Below are positions 3,162 through 26,947 of a stretch of DNA of 64,000 bases, piece after piece. Every line of letters starts with the position of its first letter. Position 1 is the stretch's first letter. Position numbers and translations under genes: made by a program. The stretch comes from Escherichia virus TH42. The stretch lies in sequence record MT446413.1, one strand, 5' to 3'. The notes below the pieces were generated by a model, which did not search any database, had not been told where the DNA came from, and saw only the letters and a program-made list of their open reading frames with translations.

Positions 3162-3710
3162 CTACATTTTCCAGTTGAGAGATGGGGGATTCTTATAATC
3201 AAATCCTGCCATTTGGCAAAGACACATGTAAACCTTAACTGTTAAGTTAACGTCTTGCTCACAATATGTGAACATGTCTTCAGTGAATGCATCCCATGCT
3301 TCTTCCTGCTCACCATAATCACCCTTCAGTTCACCCAGAAATTCGCCCCATTGCTTGAGGCCATGACCACGAGGGCCATGTCTAGGGTCGCCTTTGGGAT
3401 ATTCTGGATTATCTCCAATACGGTCAGGCTTGAGATAACGACTCAGGCAAAGTGTATCAAAGACATTGAAGTGGAAAGGTATTACATGAGAGTAGAATTT
3501 AAAGAGAGCTGGTAGGTCAAAATCTATGATGTTGTGTCCTACAACTATATCAGCTTCCTTCAGTTTGTGAAGAGCTTCTTCAATTTGGTGAGGGCGATAC
3601 CCCCACCGTTCACCTGTAAGAACATCAAATATCCAGATACACCAGACATTTTGGATGCCCTCATAGAGATTATCACCCTCGATATCGAAGGCGAATATTT
3701 TCTTTACCAA
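3162..3710 (-). CDS. DnaQ-like (DEDDy) 3'-5' exonuclease
   Basis: 182 aa; Exo I FDIEGD, Exo II HNIIDFD, Exo III YCEQD motifs. Confidence 0.75.
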
Positions 3711-15720: not shown

Positions 15721-15740
15721 ACAACCTCTTCTTTGAACTT

Positions 15741-15765
15741 AAAAAAGGACTCTCCTAAGAGAGCC
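15741..15765 (-). terminator. intrinsic terminator (minus strand)
   Basis: Minus-strand RNA GGCTCTC-TTAG-GAGAGTCC followed by UUUUUU. Confidence 0.45.
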
Positions 15766-15904
15766 AAGCTTTAAGGCCAATTAAATAGATATCACCCAAT
15801 ATCTGTGGATAACCTGCTCTTAAAATATTCTATCCGACGGATGTTCGAGGACTATTCCTCTCCCTAGCATCGGCCCCATACGGGTAAGATTAAATTAAGT
15901 TTAG

Positions 15905-15956
15905 GTTAGTTGAGCCAGAATAGCTCACATAGCCCTCTGATACTCACAAGGGCTAT
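15905..15956 (-). repeat. conserved composite RNA element, copy 1 (8-bp hairpin + TCAACTAACC on minus strand)
   Basis: Plus: GGTTAGTTGAG...ATAGCCCT-ctgatactcaca-AGGGCTAT; immediately 3' of gene 15962..16210. Confidence 0.5.
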
Positions 15957-15961
15957 AGATG

Positions 15962-16210
15962 TTACTCTGTGGCTCCGTCAAAGCGAAGGATTGCTGTTGG
16001 AACAGGGATTACAACCATATCAAAATCTAAGCGGAAGAGGTGTCCTGTGCTCAGTTGAACTGCTGTTACAGGCTTAGCAATTCCTGAGACTTCTGCGGAA
16101 GGGATTCTGATAAAGAATTCTCCCGGATACTCAGGTGAATGAAACACTTCTCCCGCTGTCATATTTACCAACTTAATGTCGGGTACGGGTTGTTTATTTT
16201 CAATTTGCAT
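15962..16210 (-). CDS. small protein, PG(D/E)xF paralog family
   Basis: 82 aa; MTAGEVF...PGEFF and C-terminal VIPVP; followed by conserved hairpin element. Confidence 0.45.
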   Translation of the reverse strand: MQIENKQPVPDIKLVNMTAGEVFHSPEYPGEFFIRIPSAEVSGIAKPVTAVQLSTGHLFRLDFDMVVIPVPTAILRFDGATE

Positions 16211-16443
16211 TACAGACCCTTCTTGGCACGATCTTTGGCAGTTTTGCCAGTGCGGATACGATGGGAAACATTAACCAGCTCACCACCTTCGACGATAGTT
16301 ACGCTTTTGTTTTTCGCAATATCAAACACAGACTTCTCTGTTCCGCCTAGACGAATCTGACGCGGTTCACTTTGGGTCTGAGTTGACTTGGACTGGAACT
16401 GGAACGGCTGACGGATGGCATCAATTGCGCTAACTTTAGACAT
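16210..16443 (-). CDS. hypothetical protein
   Basis: 77 aa ORF in operon context. Confidence 0.4.
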   Translation of the reverse strand: MSKVSAIDAIRQPFQFQSKSTQTQSEPRQIRLGGTEKSVFDIAKNKSVTIVEGGELVNVSHRIRTGKTAKDRAKKGL

Positions 16444-16471
16444 GTTTTTATTACCTTAAATTAAAGAGAGA

Positions 16472-16885
16472 TTAAACAACGAATTGGAACGCTTCGTATC
16501 CAAACTTATAAGAGAAGTCATGCTTGAATTTCACTACACGACCACGGTCACGGAAAGATTTCAGACGAGTGATGAACCCAGCCATCGGCTCAAGGTCAAT
16601 AGGGCTACGAATCTTCATAGCTACAGAGTGCAGCTTGAAGCGCTTACCAGTGCTACAGGCCATCATCACATACTCCATACGAGTAGTCCAGATGTTGAGC
16701 ACCATGCTTGTTTTCTCCGCTGACCAACCAGTCTTACGGGCGATTTCCTTATGGATGTTAAGCTCCAAAGGAAGAGGGAATTGCTTGTTGAATGAAGCCG
16801 GATAAAGTTTGACCAGAAGATCAATGTTTTCTTTATACGTGAGGTAGGCCAATTTTTTGCTTACGTTGGGGAATTTCCCAGCCAT
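16472..16885 (-). CDS. ProQ/FinO-like RNA-binding protein
   Basis: 137 aa; KKLAYLTYKENIDLLVKLYPASFNKQFPLPLELNIHKEI...NIWTTRMEYV parallels the ProQ N-terminal domain (FP-CF, PLKIGI, YT-x2-W-x-Y). Confidence 0.5.
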   Translation of the reverse strand: MAGKFPNVSKKLAYLTYKENIDLLVKLYPASFNKQFPLPLELNIHKEIARKTGWSAEKTSMVLNIWTTRMEYVMMACSTGKRFKLHSVAMKIRSPIDLEPMAGFITRLKSFRDRGRVVKFKHDFSYKFGYEAFQFVV

Positions 16886-16904
16886 TTTTGAAGCTCCAAA
16901 ACAG

Positions 16905-16962
16905 CGCCGAAAAGAGAGGCGTCATAGTAGCTAAAGGGAGGAGAGAAGAGGGCTTATTTACT
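16905..16962. repeat. ~45-nt direct repeat, copy 1
   Basis: GCGTCATAGTAG ... AGAGAAGAGG(G)CTTA-TTTACT shared with 23476-23522. Confidence 0.45.
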
Positions 16963-17070
16963 TGCCTTTTTCTGTCCGTTAATGTACCAGATAACTGAGC
17001 CATCAGGCTGTCGCTGACCAAAGCCTTTCAGGTTAACCATTTCTTCTTCAGAGTAGGCACGTTTTCTCAC
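16954..17070 (-). CDS. possible small protein (38 aa, GTG start)
   Basis: GTG preceded by AGGAG SD at 7 nt; followed by the 45-nt repeat; track ORF 16833..17021 in another frame judged less likely. Confidence 0.25.
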   Translation of the reverse strand: MRKRAYSEEEMVNLKGFGQRQPDGSVIWYINGQKKASK

Positions 17071-17083
17071 TGATTTTCTCCTG

Positions 17084-17341
17084 TCAATAGAAGGTGTGTG
17101 TAGAGTCGTCGTTCATAGATAACCAAACGAAGAAGACAATCACACAGAAAGCAATAATACCGAGAATTGCAAGGATTATAGTGTTAGCTAATGTGATATC
17201 TAACACGCTTTGCAGATACATAAAGAACTGTACGACACCACATATCATTAGCACGACACCAACAACAATGAGGAGCCAATATGTGCAGAGAAGGGCTGCA
17301 TCCAATAGTGACACATATTTTGGATGATCTTTACGTTTCAC
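17084..17341 (-). CDS. membrane protein (two predicted TM helices)
   Basis: 85 aa; LLCTYWLLIVVGVVLMICGVV and ILAILGIIAFCVIVFFVWL. Confidence 0.45.
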   Translation of the reverse strand: MKRKDHPKYVSLLDAALLCTYWLLIVVGVVLMICGVVQFFMYLQSVLDITLANTIILAILGIIAFCVIVFFVWLSMNDDSTHTFY

Positions 17342-17597
17342 TAACCTTCTCCACTAAATCCAGAGTTGCTGATTCAAATACAACACCAACTGGCATATTA
17401 GGTGCCATATTACGAACGTACCCACTCTGCATAGACACGGCTCGAGAGTATTCAGAACCGTTAGAGCTTTTGTTTACTTTCATGTAAAGGGTTTGTTCTT
17501 TATCTTCTTTAAGGGTAAAGAAAGAACCGGGAAGAAGTCCCTGAACGGTTACAGGGATATCTGCAACACGAGTCTTATTGATAGTAAGGACTGTCAT
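17331..17597 (-). CDS. small protein, PG(D/E)xF paralog family
   Basis: 88 aa; GLLPGSFFTLK ... LYMKV. Confidence 0.45.
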   Translation of the reverse strand: MTVLTINKTRVADIPVTVQGLLPGSFFTLKEDKEQTLYMKVNKSSNGSEYSRAVSMQSGYVRNMAPNMPVGVVFESATLDLVEKVSET

Positions 17598-17600
17598 TAT

Positions 17601-17855
17601 TTATTCCTTAATAATTGCTTCAGCTTTAATAGGAATAACAGCAACATCTTTACGAGGCGCTGTCGCTCGGCCTGTGTTAAGACAGGCTACAAGTCTATGC
17701 TCGTCCGCACCCTTAATGCACAAGCGAGTGGAGAACTCTGTAGAGAGTAAGATGTATAAATCACCATCTTCACTGTTAGGGTACATGAAGCAATCCCCAA
17801 GTCGCAAAGCACTGAGGGGTATTGAATTTTTACCTGCTGGCATGTTAACTTTCAT
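17601..17855 (-). CDS. small protein, PG(D/E)xF paralog family
   Basis: 84 aa; LSALRLGDCFMY ... LYILL ... VAVIPI. Confidence 0.45.
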   Translation of the reverse strand: MKVNMPAGKNSIPLSALRLGDCFMYPNSEDGDLYILLSTEFSTRLCIKGADEHRLVACLNTGRATAPRKDVAVIPIKAEAIIKE

Positions 17856-18069
17856 TTAACCACCTTTAGTTATGGACCAATTTATGAGAGAACTCTCGGA
17901 AGAATGCTTTCATAAATAGGGGGGAGGGGACGAATCCTCCCATATCCTATTAATTAATGTTGCATGTAAGACCTAACAATCCGATGCTGTAGTGGATAGC
18001 GTAAAACGCTTACCGGCATTAAACCCAGCCCATGAGGGGCTTATGTGATTAAAATGCTCAACATTGAGC

Positions 18070-18110
18070 GGTTAGTTGATAGGAGATCTGAAGTCCTATC
18101 TCAAAGGACT
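18070..18110 (-). repeat. related composite element, copy 3 (different hairpin, same GGTTAGTTGA flank)
   Basis: Plus: GGTTAGTTGATAGG...AGTCCT-atctcaa-AGGACT. Confidence 0.35.
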
Positions 18111-18132
18111 CTCGTAAGAATCCTTCACGATA

Positions 18133-18399
18133 TTACTTAGTAATAAAGACTGTCACCTTATCCATTACCCAGCCTATCAACATAAGTAAAGGTAAGAAGA
18201 GGATAAAGATCAGCATAAAAGGCCAGAAGAATATCACCGTCCAAATAGAGTATTCATCAGGCTTACCACTCCATGAGGAATGGAAGAAGTTGTAGAGTGT
18301 ATTGGTTTTAAAGCACCATTTAACTACAATGGCTGCCAACCACCAACCAATAACATAAATCAGGAGGACATACGCTGCTGTAACCATTGACCGTTCCAT
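18133..18399 (-). CDS. membrane protein (multiple TM helices)
   Basis: 88 aa; highly hydrophobic (VLLIYVIGWWLAAIVV, FFWPFMLIFILFLPLLMLIGWV). Confidence 0.45.
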   Translation of the reverse strand: MERSMVTAAYVLLIYVIGWWLAAIVVKWCFKTNTLYNFFHSSWSGKPDEYSIWTVIFFWPFMLIFILFLPLLMLIGWVMDKVTVFITK

Positions 18400-18614
18400 T
18401 GATAGTTGCGAGTTACCACGTTTCCGTGGATAAGGAAGTGCTGGCGGCGAAGGATATCTTTAACGTTGTAGTAGGCAGCGTTACCGAGATGGCCTTCTTT
18501 GATAAGCCAGCGCAGATTACGAATATCAACCAACAACATGCTTACTTGTTGCTTGCATGAAGTCTGAGCCGCTGTTTCAATCAGAGATTTCGTATCAGAA
18601 TAATGACCAGACAT
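18360..18614 (-). CDS. hypothetical protein
   Basis: 84 aa ORF; overlaps downstream gene start. Confidence 0.35.
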   Translation of the reverse strand: MSGHYSDTKSLIETAAQTSCKQQVSMLLVDIRNLRWLIKEGHLGNAAYYNVKDILRRQHFLIHGNVVTRNYQWNGQWLQQRMSS

Positions 18615-18615
18615 A

Positions 18616-18915
18616 TCACCACTCCTTACCTGTTGTTGTCACAGAACCACCACACCACAATGCCGTATCAATCACAACCTTGTCTGGTGTAGACTTCTCT
18701 TCGTTGATAGACGGGTTGGCATTAGAACAGGTTGCCCCGTTGTAGCGCATATCAATCTCACCACTAGGAACCTTGTTCCCTGAATGCCAGCGAGATACGC
18801 ACACACCTTCTACCGATAATGCACACCATCCATCAGGACGATGCTGTACACAGCCTGTAAGAGCTACACAGGCGATAAAGATACAGGTTAAGGTAATTAC
18901 ACCACCCCAGCTCAT
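18616..18915 (-). CDS. Cys-rich lipoprotein
   Basis: 99 aa; signal peptide with lipobox LTGC ([12 protein letters not shown]); six further Cys. Confidence 0.55.
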
Positions 18916-19052
18916 GATCCCTCCTGAAGCGCCTTACGGCGGCTATCTCGCCAAGCCATCCATAGGTAGGTTTTAAGTTCTTCTCTTTCTTCTTCGCTGA
19001 ACAAAGGAGAAGTAAAGATATCATCGAACCACTCATTAAACTCAGGGGTCAT
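18912..19052 (-). CDS. possible small protein (46 aa), translationally coupled to lipoprotein gene
   Basis: ATG with GGAGG SD; [31 protein letters not shown]...; stop TGA overlaps lipoprotein ATG; preferred over track ORF 18833..19036. Confidence 0.3.
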
Positions 19053-19072
19053 AAACCCTCCTATTTGATTTG

Positions 19073-19224
19073 GTGGACTATCTGGAATCGAACCAGAAGC
19101 TCACTAAGAAAGCAATTCCCACTGTTATAAAAGCACTTGCCTCAACAGGGATACACTAACTCTGGTGCCGTACCCATACTAGCCCTTGTTTAAAATTGGT
19201 CGGGACGGAAGGATTCGAACCCTC
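19073..19224 (-). other. two tRNA 3'-half-like motifs (T-arm plus acceptor 3' strand) with no detectable 5' acceptor partner
   Basis: Minus strand TCTGG-TTCGATT-CCAGA (~19081-19097) and GAGGG-TTCGAAT-CCTTC-CGTCCCG-A-CCA (~19197-19224, CCA encoded). Confidence 0.3.
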
Positions 19225-19248
19225 TTACGTTGATTTAAAAGCTCTTAG

Positions 19249-19327
<79 letters not shown>

Positions 19328-19350
19328 ATTAAGAGCTTTCAATATTTTGT

Positions 19351-19560
19351 TTAACTGAAAATACGCAAGGCCACATCATGACCGATATGACCGGGAACTT
19401 TGTGCTGCTCTATTTTCAAACAGAGTTTACAAACACGAGACACACGAGACTCTTTCGCTTCGACTGGAGTGTCTTTAGCGTGAGTGATGTGTAGGTTTTC
19501 AGTGATCACCCACTCGTGTTTACATCCAGAATCTTCGGGCTTTTTCTTACGAAAGAACAT
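19351..19560 (-). CDS. small zinc-finger-like protein (tandem paralog 1 of 3)
   Basis: Start at internal ATG (MFFRKKKPEDSGCKHEWVITE...CKLCLK); H-x-H/E-W and CxxC pattern shared with the next two ORFs. Confidence 0.4.
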   Translation of the reverse strand: MFFRKKKPEDSGCKHEWVITENLHITHAKDTPVEAKESRVSRVCKLCLKIEQHKVPGHIGHDVALRIFS

Positions 19561-19568
19561 AATACCCC

Positions 19569-19733
19569 TTAGATCAGATCTGTTTTCTTGTGCAGACCAC
19601 ACACTTTACAGCGAGAGTAGATACGCAACCCTTGTCGCTCTCTGTCAGTAAGTTTATTTGTGATCGTCAGTTCATAAGTATGAAGATCTTCCCACTCATG
19701 GAAATGAAAGAAACGTTTGAACCATTTAATCAT
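19569..19733 (-). CDS. small zinc-finger-like protein (tandem paralog 2 of 3; unlisted 54-aa ORF)
   Basis: MIKWFKRFFHFHEWEDLHTYELTITNKLTDRERQGLRIYSRCKVCGLHKKTDLI; ATG 19731-19733; below track size cutoff. Confidence 0.4.
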   Translation of the reverse strand: MIKWFKRFFHFHEWEDLHTYELTITNKLTDRERQGLRIYSRCKVCGLHKKTDLI

Positions 19734-19742
19734 AATGATTCC

Positions 19743-19904
19743 TTAGATTACATCACGATGACTAACATCACCACACACCTTACACTGAATAACGTAACGT
19801 GTGCCCTTGTCATTGTTCCCATCTGAATCTGTATAGACCAGAGGACGGGTGTTAATAATCTTCCAATCATGACAATGGAAGACACGCTTTAGCCATTTAA
19901 TCAT
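19743..19904 (-). CDS. small zinc-finger-like protein (tandem paralog 3 of 3)
   Basis: Start at internal ATG (MIKWLKRVFHCHDW...CKVCGD). Confidence 0.4.
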   Translation of the reverse strand: MIKWLKRVFHCHDWKIINTRPLVYTDSDGNNDKGTRYVIQCKVCGDVSHRDVI

Positions 19905-19905
19905 A

Positions 19906-20196
19906 CTAAGCACACGCCGGTAATTCAATTAACTGAGGAGTACGACAAGGGCCATCCTCATACACACCTACTAGTGTTGGCATGTAAGGCCCAGCGCACT
20001 GGTATTCATCGAACAGTTCGTTATAGGTAGGCTTCCACTTCCAAGCCCACACATAGCCCATTCGATCAATGGCAATGTAACGAGTGTTCAGAGGAACCTG
20101 CATCATCACATCACCAACTGCTATTACTTTCGTAATAACTGCTGCTCGGAAGTTTGTCTTCATAGTCTCACCGCTTAACCATAAATTGATACTCAC
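19906..20196 (-). CDS. hypothetical protein
   Basis: 96 aa ORF in operon context. Confidence 0.4.
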   Translation of the reverse strand: MSINLWLSGETMKTNFRAAVITKVIAVGDVMMQVPLNTRYIAIDRMGYVWAWKWKPTYNELFDEYQCAGPYMPTLVGVYEDGPCRTPQLIELPACA

Positions 20197-20359
20197 GGAT
20201 CGAGTCTACGTACTCCAACACCGCAGACTCTAACGTTTCCCACACCGAAGCCGCCCCCTCGCCTACGAGAACCTCCCATAACTCCGGTGATATCTGCGTT
20301 AGTTTTATCGTCGGTTTACCCGCAGCCTTACTCACCCCTAAAATAATTTCTTCCTGCAT
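20168..20359 (-). CDS. hypothetical protein
   Basis: 63 aa ORF; overlaps downstream gene by 29 nt. Confidence 0.3.
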   Translation of the reverse strand: MQEEIILGVSKAAGKPTIKLTQISPELWEVLVGEGAASVWETLESAVLEYVDSIREYQFMVKR

Positions 20360-20385
20360 AGTCTCACCTCTATTATATTCACCAG

Positions 20386-20694
20386 TTAATCCGACAATGC
20401 CGCCATCATTTTATTCATTTTAGCCACACCTTTACGGATAAGTGGCATGAACTCATCGGCCAGTTCAGTGGATAAAAGTTTAAGACCACCTGATTTAATT
20501 CCATTCACTGCCTTCTCAACCTCATCCGACAGCAATGTCATTGTTAACAATGGGGATTTTATTACCACAGTAAAGCCCGGTTCGTACCGTGAGTGACTGT
20601 AGGTGAACTCTAAGTGAGTGACACCGGGCATCTTAGACATTTGAGCACGGATATCTACATTAGGGTTACAGTGGGTTGAAGATGAAATTGTCAT
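20386..20694 (-). CDS. hypothetical protein
   Basis: 102 aa ORF. Confidence 0.4.
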   Translation of the reverse strand: MTISSSTHCNPNVDIRAQMSKMPGVTHLEFTYSHSRYEPGFTVVIKSPLLTMTLLSDEVEKAVNGIKSGGLKLLSTELADEFMPLIRKGVAKMNKMMAALSD

Positions 20695-20942
20695 GGCTTT
20701 TTAATCTCAATCTGGACGTTGACAACAAATACAGTATGGTTTGCACTGTACACCGAAGTGCCTATGATTGGTTTGTCATCACTGAGGATTTCAACAGCGT
20801 GCTCAAGGTTAATCTTCAGATGAAGTCGACCTGATTCCATGAAGAAGTCACCAGCACGAATCTCACCAAACTTGGATGGCACACCGATAGAGGGTATCAG
20901 TATGTCAGTACGACCTTTACGGTCAAATAAACGATTGAACAT
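20691..20942 (-). CDS. small protein, PG(D/E)xF paralog family
   Basis: 83 aa; FGEIRAGDFFMESGRLHLKI ... VFVVNVQIEI. Confidence 0.45.
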   Translation of the reverse strand: MFNRLFDRKGRTDILIPSIGVPSKFGEIRAGDFFMESGRLHLKINLEHAVEILSDDKPIIGTSVYSANHTVFVVNVQIEIKKP

Positions 20943-20951
20943 ATCAACCCC

Positions 20952-21161
20952 TTATGTGATATCAACCTCAAACCAACAGGTAAGAGCTTTTTCATTGTTG
21001 CGCTTTGGTTCAAAGGATTTAGTAACTGATAACACCCGTCGCTGTTGTCCATCAAACCAGATAGTTTCATTTCTTTCAGGAAGTAGGTTGTGTGCAGCAC
21101 AAACGATTTCACCTAGCACAACCTGTCTGCCATCTTGTTTACGAACTAAATGAATGTTCAT
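20952..21161 (-). CDS. hypothetical protein
   Basis: 69 aa ORF. Confidence 0.4.
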   Translation of the reverse strand: MNIHLVRKQDGRQVVLGEIVCAAHNLLPERNETIWFDGQQRRVLSVTKSFEPKRNNEKALTCWFEVDIT

Positions 21162-21204
21162 ATCAACCTCTCTTATTAGTTTAAGTAAGAGTTATCCCTT
21201 AATT

Positions 21205-21235
21205 AAAACAACAAAGGCCACCCCGAAGGGCAGCC
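21205..21235 (-). terminator. intrinsic terminator (minus strand)
   Basis: Minus-strand GGCUGCCC-UUCG-GGGUGGCC (8-bp stem with G-U pairs) then UUUGUUGUUUU. Confidence 0.55.
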
Positions 21236-21627
21236 TCTTATTAATTATCCACCGTAAAACCAATCACCTTGACGTTTACGGATGTTAGTTGTCAGACGAA
21301 GCATGGCAGACTCAATCTTCAGAGCACCATTTGCTACTGCATCCATACGTTCAGGACGGTTCATACGCTTGGTTGACTTCTTCATAACGTTCTCTCTTTG
21401 TTAGTGGAGGCAGGATTGCCAGTTAATATAAAGGGAAGCCCTACACGTTAAGGCTTCCGCTTGTACAAACTGTCGAGAACTCTCTACCCCTAGATTGTTC
21501 TCTATCCCAAACCGATACATACCCCTACATATCGGAATGCCATTCGAAAATTAACAGGTTTTAGTCTATCACCGGATGTTTGAGACAAGTCTCGCCCTAG
21601 CGGTGAGCCATATGGCACTGAGATTAT

Positions 21628-21678
21628 GGTTAATTGAGGAACACCCTCACATAGCCCTCTGATAATCACAAGAGCTAT
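21628..21678 (-). repeat. conserved composite RNA element, copy 2
   Basis: Plus: GGTTAATTGAGG...ATAGCCCT-ctgataatcaca-AGAGCTAT; the G-to-A change keeps pairing only in the minus-strand RNA (U-G wobble); 3' of gene 21688..21912. Confidence 0.5.
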
Positions 21679-21687
21679 AAGTCGATG

Positions 21688-21912
21688 TTACTTGTTGGTC
21701 AGTCTAACATTAGGTACACGATATACCTCTGTTGGTTTACGATCAGAGGAACGTTTACCAGTGTAGAGGTTAACAAAATAGGTTTTGTGTTCCCCATAAC
21801 ACGAAGTACACATGTAGTATTGGGTTTCAGCAGTATTAAACTGGAAGACTTCACCCGGCTCTAAATCACCGAGAGTTACAACCGCTGGTGTATTGTCGAT
21901 ATCAATCTTCAT
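21688..21912 (-). CDS. small protein, PG(D/E)xF paralog family
   Basis: 74 aa; LGDLEPGEVFQF ... VPNVRLTN; followed by conserved hairpin element. Confidence 0.45.
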   Translation of the reverse strand: MKIDIDNTPAVVTLGDLEPGEVFQFNTAETQYYMCTSCYGEHKTYFVNLYTGKRSSDRKPTEVYRVPNVRLTNK

Positions 21913-22143
21913 TTAACCACCAATATTCGTTACTTGTACATTAGGTACAGAGATAACTTCATGATCTTCAGGTATCTGGAACAAAGTCCCCTGACCAAGA
22001 CCAACGACACGGTGCATACCCTGCACATAGGTGTCTGTCTTTAGGTAGAGGTGTTCAGTGTTATTTTGTAATCGGAATACGTCACCCGGACGTAACTCAC
22101 TAAGCTTTTTAGTAACAACTTCAGAGGAGAGATTGATTTTCAT
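21913..22143 (-). CDS. small protein, PG(D/E)xF paralog family
   Basis: 76 aa; LSELRPGDVFRL ... VPNVQVTN; tandem duplicate of 21688..21912. Confidence 0.45.
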   Translation of the reverse strand: MKINLSSEVVTKKLSELRPGDVFRLQNNTEHLYLKTDTYVQGMHRVVGLGQGTLFQIPEDHEVISVPNVQVTNIGG

Positions 22144-24766: not shown

Positions 24767-24786
24767 TATATGTTCTTTATTGTAGG

Positions 24787-25689: not shown

Positions 25690-26594
25690 GATAATTTACC
25701 TTTTAATTAAAACGCTCTATGCGCCGCTCTCTATGAGCTATTCAAGTCACAATGACTTAACACTAATCACTAACTATTAGTAACCAGTGGTAAATCAGGC
25801 GGACTTATCAGGAGTTAACCTTGCCGCCTAACTTTCCATGATGTTTCATCCGGTGGATTCTATTAATCGCTATAAACGAAGCCGATTTGCCAGCGATGAT
25901 TAATCATCATAATAAGGCAGTGTGCCCATCTCTAATTAGCTAACGTTCTAGCCGATGGTAATGCTGTTTACTTTACGTTCGCTCCGCGATACCCTTTTAT
26001 ATTAACTCTCTAAGCCGACTTATCACCTACTACGGGAAAGTATATGGCAAAGAGTCACTAACCGCCTGATAGATTGGCGTTTGATTATCTCTCTCGCGAT
26101 TTACTACAGTGCATTGTTATGTACTCACATCTTATTGACGTGTTTCAAACAACTTGCTTAGTAAACACTCACACTTAAACCTTATTATTAAATAGCAATT
26201 TGCTACTCTTTAACCTTCACACCGTCGCTCGCTATTGAGCGTTAATTCGTCGGGATTGACTACCCTGATTAACGTCTATTACCGTAGCACTTTACTAGCA
26301 CCGCCGCCGCTACCCTTTAACCGTAGGTGATTAGCTTAAGCCTTGCATGTACTCGATAACTTCGTTTATCAGTGGCATCGTTTCCAGTAAGGGAATGTAA
26401 AGCGGTTTTCTCTGATATTTTAGAGCGCCTTACATCGTTTTATCTGGCATAACTTGCAATGGTTATTATTGCTCGTTATGTTCAACCGATATAGGAAGAA
26501 GTTTAAATTGTTAAAGAGCGGTAAATCTATCGAAGTGCTTTCTCACTTCCCGCCACCGTTCGCCGTGGTTTCGCGTTTCACTAGTTGCCTAGTG

Positions 26595-26645
26595 AGTGCT
26601 CATTATGAATCATCCCGTTTAGCGTGTCAACCACTTTTTTTAAAT
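26595..26645 (-). promoter_or_regulatory. sigma70-type promoter (leftward)
   Basis: On minus strand: A-tract, -35 TTGACA (26625-26630), 17-bp spacer, -10 CATAAT (26602-26607). Confidence 0.45.
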
Positions 26646-26897
26646 CTTTTTCTCGTCTATTCTTTCGAATGACCAGTTAATCACACATTGGATTAACAAG
26701 ATTGTAAGCGGTTGCGCTTAACTTTCTGATTCATATTTTTAAAGAGCGGTGCGGTTTTCATGACTCCGCAAACATTTTCATTTTGAAGTCTACTTATGCA
26801 CTAACGGGGCGACTACACCCGACCTACACGCTGCACTATGTGCCACCTTTCCCGCGCTACGTCACTTAGGGGAACTGTTTAGCAAGTTGCCTTGCTT

Positions 26898-26947
26898 AGT
26901 GAACATTCTAACAGAGTGTTTCACCTTGTCAACTCTTTTTATCATCT
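26898..26947 (-). promoter_or_regulatory. sigma70-type promoter (leftward)
   Basis: On minus strand: A-rich upstream, -35 TTGACA (26927-26932), 16-bp spacer, -10 TAGAAT (26905-26910). Confidence 0.45.

Follow-up and report, generated by a model that had tools for sequence, protein, structure and literature searches.

Structured RNA modules between the early genes of a phiEco32-like phage and their possible role at early-operon terminators

Our subject is a hairpin and a nearby decamer that recur in the gaps between small genes of Escherichia virus TH42, in a stretch of 64,000 nucleotides (nt) of record MT446413.1 that we call the window. We find that the hairpin and the decamer are, with very little doubt, parts of a larger folded RNA of 130-240 nt, and we are just as confident that this is a structured non-coding RNA module transcribed within a sigma-70-driven early polycistronic mRNA from the minus strand. 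The phiEco32-like phages carry the RNA two to three times between their early genes, and module 1, the copy in the intergenic region (IGR) that we call IGR1, is conserved in about 100 phages. What the modules do is a more tentative matter. The function that we favour, without being able to put it higher than a working preference, is that of a cis-acting, terminator-coupled punctuation module of the early operon, where termination, the control of read-through and any binding partner are inferences from the sequence and from the literature on related phages. The RNA family is apparently undescribed, and its general kind, the cis-acting structured RNA in a phage early operon, is a familiar one.

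The repeat that an earlier note had described from the letters of the window is real. Positions 15924-15957 and 21646-21679 are 94% identical over 34 nt, and an 18-mer taken from the repeat has two exact occurrences where 0.03 would be expected. All module sequences are read here on the minus (coding) strand, on which the first hairpin is AUAGCCCU-12 nt-AGGGCUAU and the second AUAGCUCU-12 nt-AGGGCUAU, both with 8 base pairs (bp), or 9 counting one U-G pair, and a loop of 10-12 nt. The decamer TCAAYTAACC was also rightly seen to be present three times. Each time it lies on the minus strand and in an intergenic gap of 240-300 nt. Its exact count of 3 compares with 0.33 expected and is reached in 0 of 100 shuffles; when one mismatch is allowed the count is not significant. 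The small genes upstream of the first two copies are paralogous as had been proposed, since both match phrog_7832 and phrog_7431. The extent given for the element (about 50 nt) was too short, as the similarity between copies 1 and 2 reaches about 90 nt further and the hairpin is only helix 1 of the larger RNA.

The one difference between the two stems had been taken as a compensatory change that works only in the minus-strand transcript. It is a minus-strand C-to-U substitution, which yields a U-G pair in RNA of that strand and would yield A-C on the opposite one. To that extent the observation holds, but the change is not strictly compensatory. Across the 33 family members that we aligned this pair is C-G in 31, G-C in one and U-G in one, the last being the second copy of the window only. 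We regard it as a one-sided, recent substitution which is consistent with an RNA structure and is, alone, no evidence for one. True compensatory changes are seen only by comparing relatives.

Covariance analysis across related phages, which had been proposed as a check, did find structural covariation. A first alignment joined the two window copies with the homologous gap of the Salmonella phages pSal-SNUABM-01 and SE131 (Grimontviridae), where about 230 nt are conserved, and the architecture was read from 19 distinct copies. The alignment used to score covariation holds 33 copies from three phage groups, with 22 pairs and 715 pair cells (an earlier version had 30 sequences). Standard pairs fill 99.9% of these cells, and pairing falls to 32-46% when the 3' partners are slid by 1-3 columns. 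Double compensatory changes are seen in 13 of the 22 pairs, a number that none of 500 shuffles reaches. About 51 pair cells are U-G in the coding-strand RNA and would be A-C on the opposite strand, and the loops found in relatives, cUUCGg, UACG or UCCG in H1, CUUG in H5 of the IGR2-type copies and UUCG or GAAA in the terminator, are typical of stable RNA hairpins. Given these U-G cells and RNA-type loops, the functional form is the RNA of the coding strand. Folding-energy z-scores separate no strand (minus -2.5, plus -3.7). The claim that there is selection on the structure of the minus-strand RNA is thus strongly supported by the covariation, the U-G cells and the loops of the family and not by the single substitution on which it had been built.

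Against Rfam 15 at the gathering threshold only a tRNA at 19249-19327 passes in the window, and at E-values up to 10 the only other matches are sub-threshold, terminator-driven ones to TarB and STnc100. No description of the elements was found in the literature on phiEco32, 7-11, SU10 and SU7, with two primary phiEco32 papers (PMC3275717, PMC2587145) standing outside this comparison.

The features of the three modules are collected in Table 1. Module 1 matches the covariance model at 15826-15969 with 140.8 bits. It starts with a conserved AGUAAC within which the stop codon of the upstream gene sits, and H1, a very stable hairpin, follows 4-10 nt past this stop codon; six of the nine H1 pairs are doubly changed across the family. 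In H2, which was left out of the formal scoring because the aligners split it, inspection of the alignments shows pair 4 as C-G, U-A or G-C by lineage. An AU-rich single-stranded stretch leads from H2 to H3, where two of the three pairs covary (CCC/GGG, GCC/GGC and GGC/GCC). H4 is a 6-bp stem with four covarying pairs, and beyond it lies a 7x7 internal loop, CUAGGGN/N'AACAUC, that is invariant but for N and N', which change together (A..G or C..A). For the composite motif CTAGGG-N-AACATCC the window has two occurrences where 0.03 would be expected. Further downstream, H6 is absent in 7-11 and SE131. IGR1 has stop codons in all three frames, as read by eye, and is non-coding by its covariation and its insertions and deletions.

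Table 1. Coordinates of the RNA modules and of a candidate partner protein in the window.
Feature	Position	Strand	Sequence or remarks
Module 1, whole	15739..15966	-	From the stop codon of the upstream gene (TAA in AGTAAC, 15961-15966) to the end of the terminator U-tract
Module 1, H1	15929..15956	-	Hairpin of the earlier note, AUAGCCCU(U)/(G)AGGGCUAU; family pattern AUAGCC.../...GGCUAU
Module 1, H2	15911..15927	-	UGAGC/GCUCA (family GAGN/N'CUC); 3' arm overlaps the first bases of the decamer
Module 1, decamer (copy 1)	15904..15913	-	UCAACUAACC
Module 1, long-range helix, 5' strand	15895..15908	-	UAACCU-AAA-CUUAA
Module 1, H3	15875..15884	-	CCC-GUAU-GGG; in the family a 3-bp stem with RUAU loop
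Module 1, H4, internal loop and H5	15834..15873	-	CCGAUG/CGUCGG, CUAGGGA/GAACAUC, then hairpin H5
Module 1, long-range helix, 3' strand	15810..15823	-	UUAAG-AGC-AGGUUA, running into UCCACA
Module 1, H6	15787..15804	-	AGAUAU-UGGGUG-AUAUCU, G-rich loop; from RNAalifold and the minimum-free-energy fold
Module 1, intrinsic terminator	15739..15774	-	A-tract, GGCUCUC-UUAG-GAGAGUCC, U6; ribosome-binding site of the next gene directly after
Candidate partner, phage ProQ/FinO-domain protein	16472..16885	-	Open reading frame of 137 amino acids, same operon as module 1 and about 0.5 kb upstream of it; Pfam PF04352
Module 2 (IGR2-type), whole	21425..21692	-	Covariance-model match 21561-21691, 120.3 bits; RNAalifold
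Module 2, H1	21651..21678	-	
Module 2, H2	21635..21649	-	
Module 2, decamer	21628..21637	-	
Module 2, H3	21607..21616	-	
Module 2, H4, internal loop and H5	21569..21606	-	
Module 2, 3' hairpins	21512..21535 and 21475..21502	-	UAGGGG loops
Module 2, terminator-like hairpin	21425..21458	-	Poor U-tract
Module 3 (IGR3), whole	17912..18125	-	
Module 3, H1'	18104..18125	-	UACG loop
Module 3, H2'	18078..18100	-	
Module 3, decamer	18070..18079	-	
Module 3, interior		-	Different internal hairpins
Module 3, possible decamer partner	17972..17979	-	GUUAG
Module 3, terminator-like hairpin	17912..17941	-	

The decamer takes part in a long-range helix in the IGR1 type. By RNAalifold and the minimum-free-energy fold of single sequences its UAACCU is predicted to pair with AGGUUA about 85 nt downstream, and the adjoining CUUAA with UUAAG. 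The helix is modelled as closing a three-way junction around H3 and the H4-H5 arm, a model that we consider well supported. The outer part of the helix is invariant and hence uninformative. The inner part has three pairs with double changes and is 96% paired, as against at most 60% when slid. The duplex energy in phiEco32 is -17.4 compared with -6.9 +/- 2.6 for shuffled partners (p about 0.003); in 7-11 it is -15.2 (p about 0.007), and against shuffled partners the p-values for the pSal and window copies are about 0.04 and 0.06. In IGR3 the possible partner of the decamer is 5-6 bp long, with the GUUAG lying inside an invariant block. The same folding methods predict another pairing, P1a, in which AGUAAC(AYC), stop codon included, pairs with the H2 loop, so that P1a and H2 are mutually exclusive; it covaries in IGR2 as C-G, U-G and U-A.

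Modules 1 and 2 share the 5' core and not the 3' terminator region. For the third site, at 18070-18110, the earlier note had described the decamer flank with a different hairpin, which is correct, and only the 5' half of the architecture turns out to be shared. We rejected IGR3 as a full family member, as it scores 9.1 bits in the covariance model and only its 5' half aligns. It is a module of the same design and not a demonstrable homologue of the core. IGR3 is about 76% conserved among Kuravirus genomes; its H1-like hairpin has two pair-preserving changes in one orthologue and is followed by a 7-bp H2' and then the decamer. RNAalifold gives almost no covariation for IGR3, whose orthologues are too similar.

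The 6.5 kb around the sites match 134 phage records, the best being the Gordonclarkvirinae podophages Bas88, SU7, IME267 and ECBP2 at 92-95% identity, and by this likeness the window can be assigned to a phiEco32-like podophage. With the covariance model, every Gordonclarkvirinae genome gives exactly two copies and every 7-11-like genome a single one, at 116-145 bits, and the model has no further match elsewhere in the window. Module 1 is 70-75% identical in the 7-11-like Salmonella phages. Further copies were added from metagenome and genome scans. A diverged copy (67 bits) lies on the 48.7-kb contig JBOFGJ010000684.1, which we call L023 and which is binned as a Flavobacterium metagenome-assembled genome; the contig is really a relative of the Citrobacter phage CVT22 (Zobellviridae), with an Srd-like gene and a 446-amino-acid protein 41% identical to a CVT22 protein. 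In L023 the H1, H2 and H4 sequences are wholly different yet paired, and H3, the internal loop and UUAAGAG are kept. CVT22 itself is matched less well (26 bits, E 2e-4); its helices come in the same order, but its internal loop is degenerate (4x3) and, as far as the sequence can be read, no U-tract terminator follows. A search of 5,426 complete E. coli genomes gave no copy, and the extra matches from a relaxed pattern scan of IMG/VR were dismissed because they fit the pattern alone. As a side observation, L023 is an enterobacterial-type podophage and has an array of small paralogous open reading frames (ORFs) that all end in ...EENE.

G-rich hairpin loops are present downstream of the core, with UAGGGG twice in IGR2 (21475-21535), UUGGGUG in IGR1 and CAGGGGUG in L023 (at about 3215-3245). 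These echo the CUAGGG of the internal loop and could be repeated binding sites for one factor.

The setting of the modules is a long leftward early operon. Between 14 and 26 kb the minus strand carries all credible ORFs, and the sole consensus early sigma-70 promoters on the minus strand of the window are at 29609-29582, 27164-27137 and 26932-26905. All three are near-consensus (TTGACA-N16-TAnnnT), and the last of them precedes an ORF-poor leader of about 1.2 kb (25690-26905). Their positions are taken from the literature on relatives, and they correspond to the early promoters listed for SU10 in Table S2 of PMC4281155, which lie ahead of CDS125 and in the CDS120-CDS121 interval. These positions place the three sites 5-11 kb inside a long early transcription unit. 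For phage 7-11, primer extension validated two sigma-70 promoters only, at the far right end, and long polycistronic early transcripts were inferred by the authors (PMC8948821).

Promoters were looked for closer to the modules as well. The promoter scan found no consensus promoter within or between them. On the minus strand no promoter-like site lies inside the modules, and the site touching IGR3 (18156-18127) has a -35 element that is not conserved. A match to cTGACt-18-TATAtT is confined to the Kuravirus IGR1, with no conservation in 7-11 or the window. The scan found no promoter-like site between the IGR1 terminator and the next gene either. Promoters of the phage sigma factor phi32_gp36 consist of one element only, tAATGTAtA, which precedes the start by 6-8 bp (PMC8948821), and this motif is absent from the three intergenic regions. 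Over the 14-26 kb span the scan counts 22 terminator-like sites (8.6 expected) and 11 promoter-like ones (23 expected), so the former are enriched and the latter depleted. Within the early unit, upstream of the first module, we also note three tandem intrinsic terminators in 200 nt at 23452-23253 on the minus strand (23452, 23350 and 23272) and a strong one at 24767-24740, with no consensus promoter after them.

The hairpins named in the earlier note were said not to be classic terminators for want of a U-run. This is right for those hairpins, as H1 is followed by GUGAG..., the terminator scan omits it, and H1 does not have the make-up of an intrinsic terminator. What had been missed is a terminator-type hairpin 150-200 nt further on that closes each intergenic region. 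The scan puts these at 15765-15748 with a U6 tract in IGR1, at 21458-21434 in IGR2 and at 17941-17922 in IGR3. The one in IGR1 is canonical, with a 7-bp G+C-rich stem, a 4-nt loop and CUUUUUU, and the annotations of SU7, 4E8 and 7-11 list it as a terminator. In 7-11 the terminator of the element is the only strong one in the 11 kb examined. In Cronobacter phage A24 the same downstream gene follows a 60-nt gap with neither the element nor the terminator. Since A24 lacks both at the same position, the structured domain and the terminator travel together, and transcription must pass them to reach the downstream genes.

Around the stem of the IGR1 terminator the A-tract UUUAAAG pairs with the U-tail UUUUUUAAA in 11 of 11 orthologues. 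Terminator hairpins whose tail has at least 4 U are what the FinO domain of ProQ recognises, and in RNAs specific to ProQ this tail pairs with an A-rich flank on the 5' side (PMC7367173). Judged by its sequence, the IGR1 terminator would qualify as a ProQ/FinO ligand. The candidate partner encoded upstream matches PF04352 with 27 bits, which is exactly at the gathering score (E 4.5e-6), and its homologues are 94-98% identical in the clade of the window and 32% identical in the 7-11-like Salmonella phages.

In the function that we favour, the terminator would stop some of the polymerases and give early mRNAs with 3' ends buried in a folded domain. These ends would carry a terminator with A-tract and U-tail, a kind bound by FinO/ProQ-domain proteins. 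A partner, perhaps RNA polymerase, a small ligand or a protein of host or phage, would bind to the conserved junction and internal loop and would then set the level of read-through into the downstream (delayed) early genes. The outcome would be conditional termination with protected 3' ends, and with it control over where early transcripts stop and how long they persist. We prefer this because the domain and the terminator co-occur, because the positions of the promoters demand read-through, and because invariant loops with covarying helices look like those of riboswitches or protein sites.

Several observations weigh against this control of termination. The terminal hairpins of IGR2 and IGR3 pass a simple scan, but their U-tracts are interrupted and they are thus weaker. 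The four terminator-like hairpins at 24767, 23452, 23350 and 23272 lie upstream of the first module, so the modules cannot be the sole answer to the need for read-through. A long-range helix AAUUAAC/GUUAAUU (7 bp in the window) was tried for IGR2 and rejected, as it is no better than shuffles and is broken in phiEco32, 4E8 and NJ01; for this reason we claim the long-range helix firmly for the IGR1 type only. No ProQ/FinO homologue was found in Kuravirus proper though all three modules are there, and a strict co-distribution of the module with the phage gene was rejected on this ground. Lastly, the sensor-like domain with its invariant loops and covarying helices is present as in a riboswitch, but to judge from the sequences there seems to be no visible classical riboswitch or attenuator platform. 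On inspection the core and the terminator stem showed no alternative pairing that is conserved: AAGAG/CUCUU offers only 4-5 bp and is not kept in the 7-11-like phages, which led us to reject a riboswitch-style antiterminator pairing with the terminator arm.

A bolder variant, which we think unlikely, is that the junction with the CUAGGGN/N'AACAUC loop stands for a new class of antitermination RNAs that act in cis in virulent phages. Its action would be either through direct contact with the E. coli RNA polymerase, in the manner of HK022 put, or as a sensor for a metabolite or for some factor of the phage or the host. A strong terminator in the middle of the operon would then be turned into a timed switch from immediate-early to delayed-early genes, and the competition of H2 with P1a at the stop codon would couple this switch to translation of the upstream gene. 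The likeness to HK022 put and lambda nut lies in paralogous structured RNAs of host-polymerase early operons that stand upstream of terminators to be read through and have covarying helices and conserved loops. HK022 put is a two-hairpin RNA of about 70 nt near its promoter; the nascent put RNA binds the polymerase that transcribes it and suppresses terminators further on, with no phage protein involved. Here we have a 130-nt multi-helix junction 5-11 kb from the promoters, and every copy has a downstream hairpin of its own. Neither in sequence nor in architecture was a match to put or nut detected, and the lambda boxA consensus is absent by eye.

The earlier note had suggested sites of RNA processing or stability, or protein-binding regulatory hairpins. 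This is compatible with the data and we keep it as a rival, with terminator control ranked slightly higher. In its fuller form, which we hold to be possible but improbable, RNase III or RNase E would split the polycistronic early RNA as happens in the T7 early operon, the former cutting at the quasi-continuous long-range helix or the H4-loop-H5 arm and the latter at the AU-rich single strand. The upstream mRNA would have its new 3' end shielded by H1, and the new 5' end would be shielded by the junction. The RNase III signals of T7 and T3 offer a parallel in that these too are intercistronic, lie in sigma-70 early polycistronic RNA and form an irregular hairpin with a conserved internal loop, of which the leftover hairpin stabilises the upstream mRNA. 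The internal-loop arm of our modules seems to resemble the irregular hairpins of the T7 sites, the modules lie between cistrons of an early operon read by the host polymerase, and their AU-rich single strands adjoin stable hairpins. The T7 sites, though, are single hairpins of about 60 nt, and what we see is a multi-helix junction with a separate stop-proximal hairpin and a terminator. For RNase III the helices are of marginal length. The arm has H4 with 6 bp, the 7x7 loop and H5 with 3-5 bp, so that its 9-11 Watson-Crick pairs are short for this enzyme, although the long-range helix (11 bp and a 3x3 loop) could stack on it. Moreover, a simple stabiliser needs neither an invariant 14-nt loop nor a three-way junction.

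The place of H1, so close behind the stop codon and with UNCG-type loops in relatives, also speaks for stabilisation, as CUUCGG hairpins have been tied to mRNA stability in T4 (discussion of PMC8948821). H1 of Kuravirus, a 9-bp stem with a cUUCGg loop, and H1 of the 7-11-like phages with UACG or UCCG resemble this class (Tuerk et al. 1988, in PMC8948821). The H1 loop of the window is different, at 10-12 nt, and H1 is only one helix of the module. We also note that the take-off hairpin of T4 gene 60, a 6-bp stem with a UUCG loop, is identical to the outer stem and loop of the Kuravirus H1 (AUAGCC..UUCG..GGCUAU; phiEco32 IGR1, L010:6030-6164). A gene 60 bypass element was rejected, as the rest of the gap is not significant (p 0.1-0.6) and there is no ORF on which the ribosome could land, and we have treated the likeness as membership of the general CUUCGG hairpin class.

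Less probable still is a stable trans-acting non-coding RNA. This would be a small RNA derived from a 3' untranslated region or a sponge, bound by ProQ/FinO or Hfq, released by processing and the terminator of the module and aimed at host RNAs or proteins during takeover. The canonical terminator with A-tract and U-tail at the module end is the signature of ProQ ligands (PMC7367173), a ProQ/FinO gene is near and is also present in the 7-11-like phages, and the modules are better conserved than the flanking genes. Set beside mRNA 3' terminators bound by ProQ/FinO (PMC7367173), the modules also differ: some 75 nt separate the conserved core from the terminator downstream, a good U-tail is missing in IGR2 and IGR3, and Kuravirus proper lacks the phage protein. 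We identified no conserved single-stranded seed, since the best candidate, the decamer, is paired in IGR1, and no promoter of its own was found for such an RNA. Modules 1 and 2 also have in common the 5' core and not the terminator region, the opposite of what is expected if the terminator were the functional end.

We give little credence to the modules being mainly recombination cassettes at the level of DNA, crossover points for the small early genes in which the RNA structure is incidental. The homology to Kuravirus is patchy and its edges coincide with those of IGR1 (15725-15968) and IGR3 (17912-18143), and the gene upstream of a given module varies between phages. An obligatory link of the module to the paralogous upstream gene family was in fact rejected, since at least five unrelated PHROGs stand upstream in other phages. 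Such shuffling is the work of the PeSLs of T4-type phages, repeats composed of promoter and terminator (PMC4122927), and they share with the modules the form of repeated intergenic stem-loop/terminator cassettes in plastic early regions of small ORFs with mosaic boundaries (PMC2839356, PMC4122927). Repetition in the early region at mosaic or indel boundaries is indeed what we find. However, a PeSL is short and consists of an early promoter and a stem-loop, whereas the modules have no promoter, are much larger and show clear selection for RNA structure. There are compensatory changes in every helix, and in L023 the H1 and H4 sequences are fully replaced with pairing kept, which shows selection on structure and not on sequence identity. 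The copies in one genome are also near-identical over 34 nt only.

A protein-binding site in the DNA (a DnaA box, a palindromic operator ATAGCCC...GGGCTAT, a cruciform or a replication signal) is very improbable: the exact-consensus box TTATCCACA at 15804-15812 (-) is conserved from Kuravirus to the 7-11-like phages and H1 is an inverted repeat, but the window has one exact box in 64 kb with 23 near-matches (17.6 expected, no enrichment) and lacks the cluster of TTATNCACA boxes beside an AT-rich unwinding region that marks an origin, IGR2 has no box, the U-G pair would be a mismatch in a DNA palindrome, and the H1 arms vary in sequence and spacing with pairing kept. The conserved GGUUAUCCACA, which contains the exact box, is conserved because part of it is the 3' strand of the long-range helix, which accounts for half of the box and leaves the conservation of UCCACA uncovered. 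A DnaA box or replication origin was rejected on these grounds.

Both phiEco32 and 7-11 are models of transcription takeover, with their own sigma factor and gp79, and their long early operons contain intrinsic terminators. The modules offer a concrete and easily mutated candidate for the control of these operons, in the form of a covariation-backed RNA family that is absent from Rfam and common to three phage groups with the same sigma-factor strategy. Whatever the function, the modules should be annotated as RNA features, in place of intergenic gaps left blank or small ORFs called in error. The exchange of early-gene cassettes takes place at boundaries that they mark, a point of relevance to the engineering of phages that are candidates for therapy.

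Other features of the region were seen along the way. There is a fourth conserved gap at 16886-17083 (-), which is not part of the RNA family; it has an ORF of 38 amino acids (the equivalent of phiEco32 gp94) and then a terminator-like hairpin, GCGCC...GGCGC UGUUUU. Six or more small paralogous early ORFs lie on the minus strand at 15962-16210, 17331-17597, 17601-17855, 20691-20942, 21688-21912 and 21913-22143, in a family that covers phrog_7832, 7431, 6570, 9955 and 12612. The AlphaFold model of one of them (predicted local distance difference test score, pLDDT, of 83.6) is an all-beta, SH3-like barrel. Its Foldseek matches to the EF-P/eIF5A N-domain, the Spt5 KOW domain and FeoA are weak (E at least 0.027), and we infer no function from them. 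The tRNA that passes in Rfam at 19249-19327 (-) is a tRNA-Arg gene (36.4 bits) with an insertion of about 20 nt in the variable region; ARAGORN misses it, the scan with that program giving no match. Just downstream, at about 19060-19240 (-), two tRNA-like 3' halves with T-arm, acceptor strand and CCA can be seen by eye.

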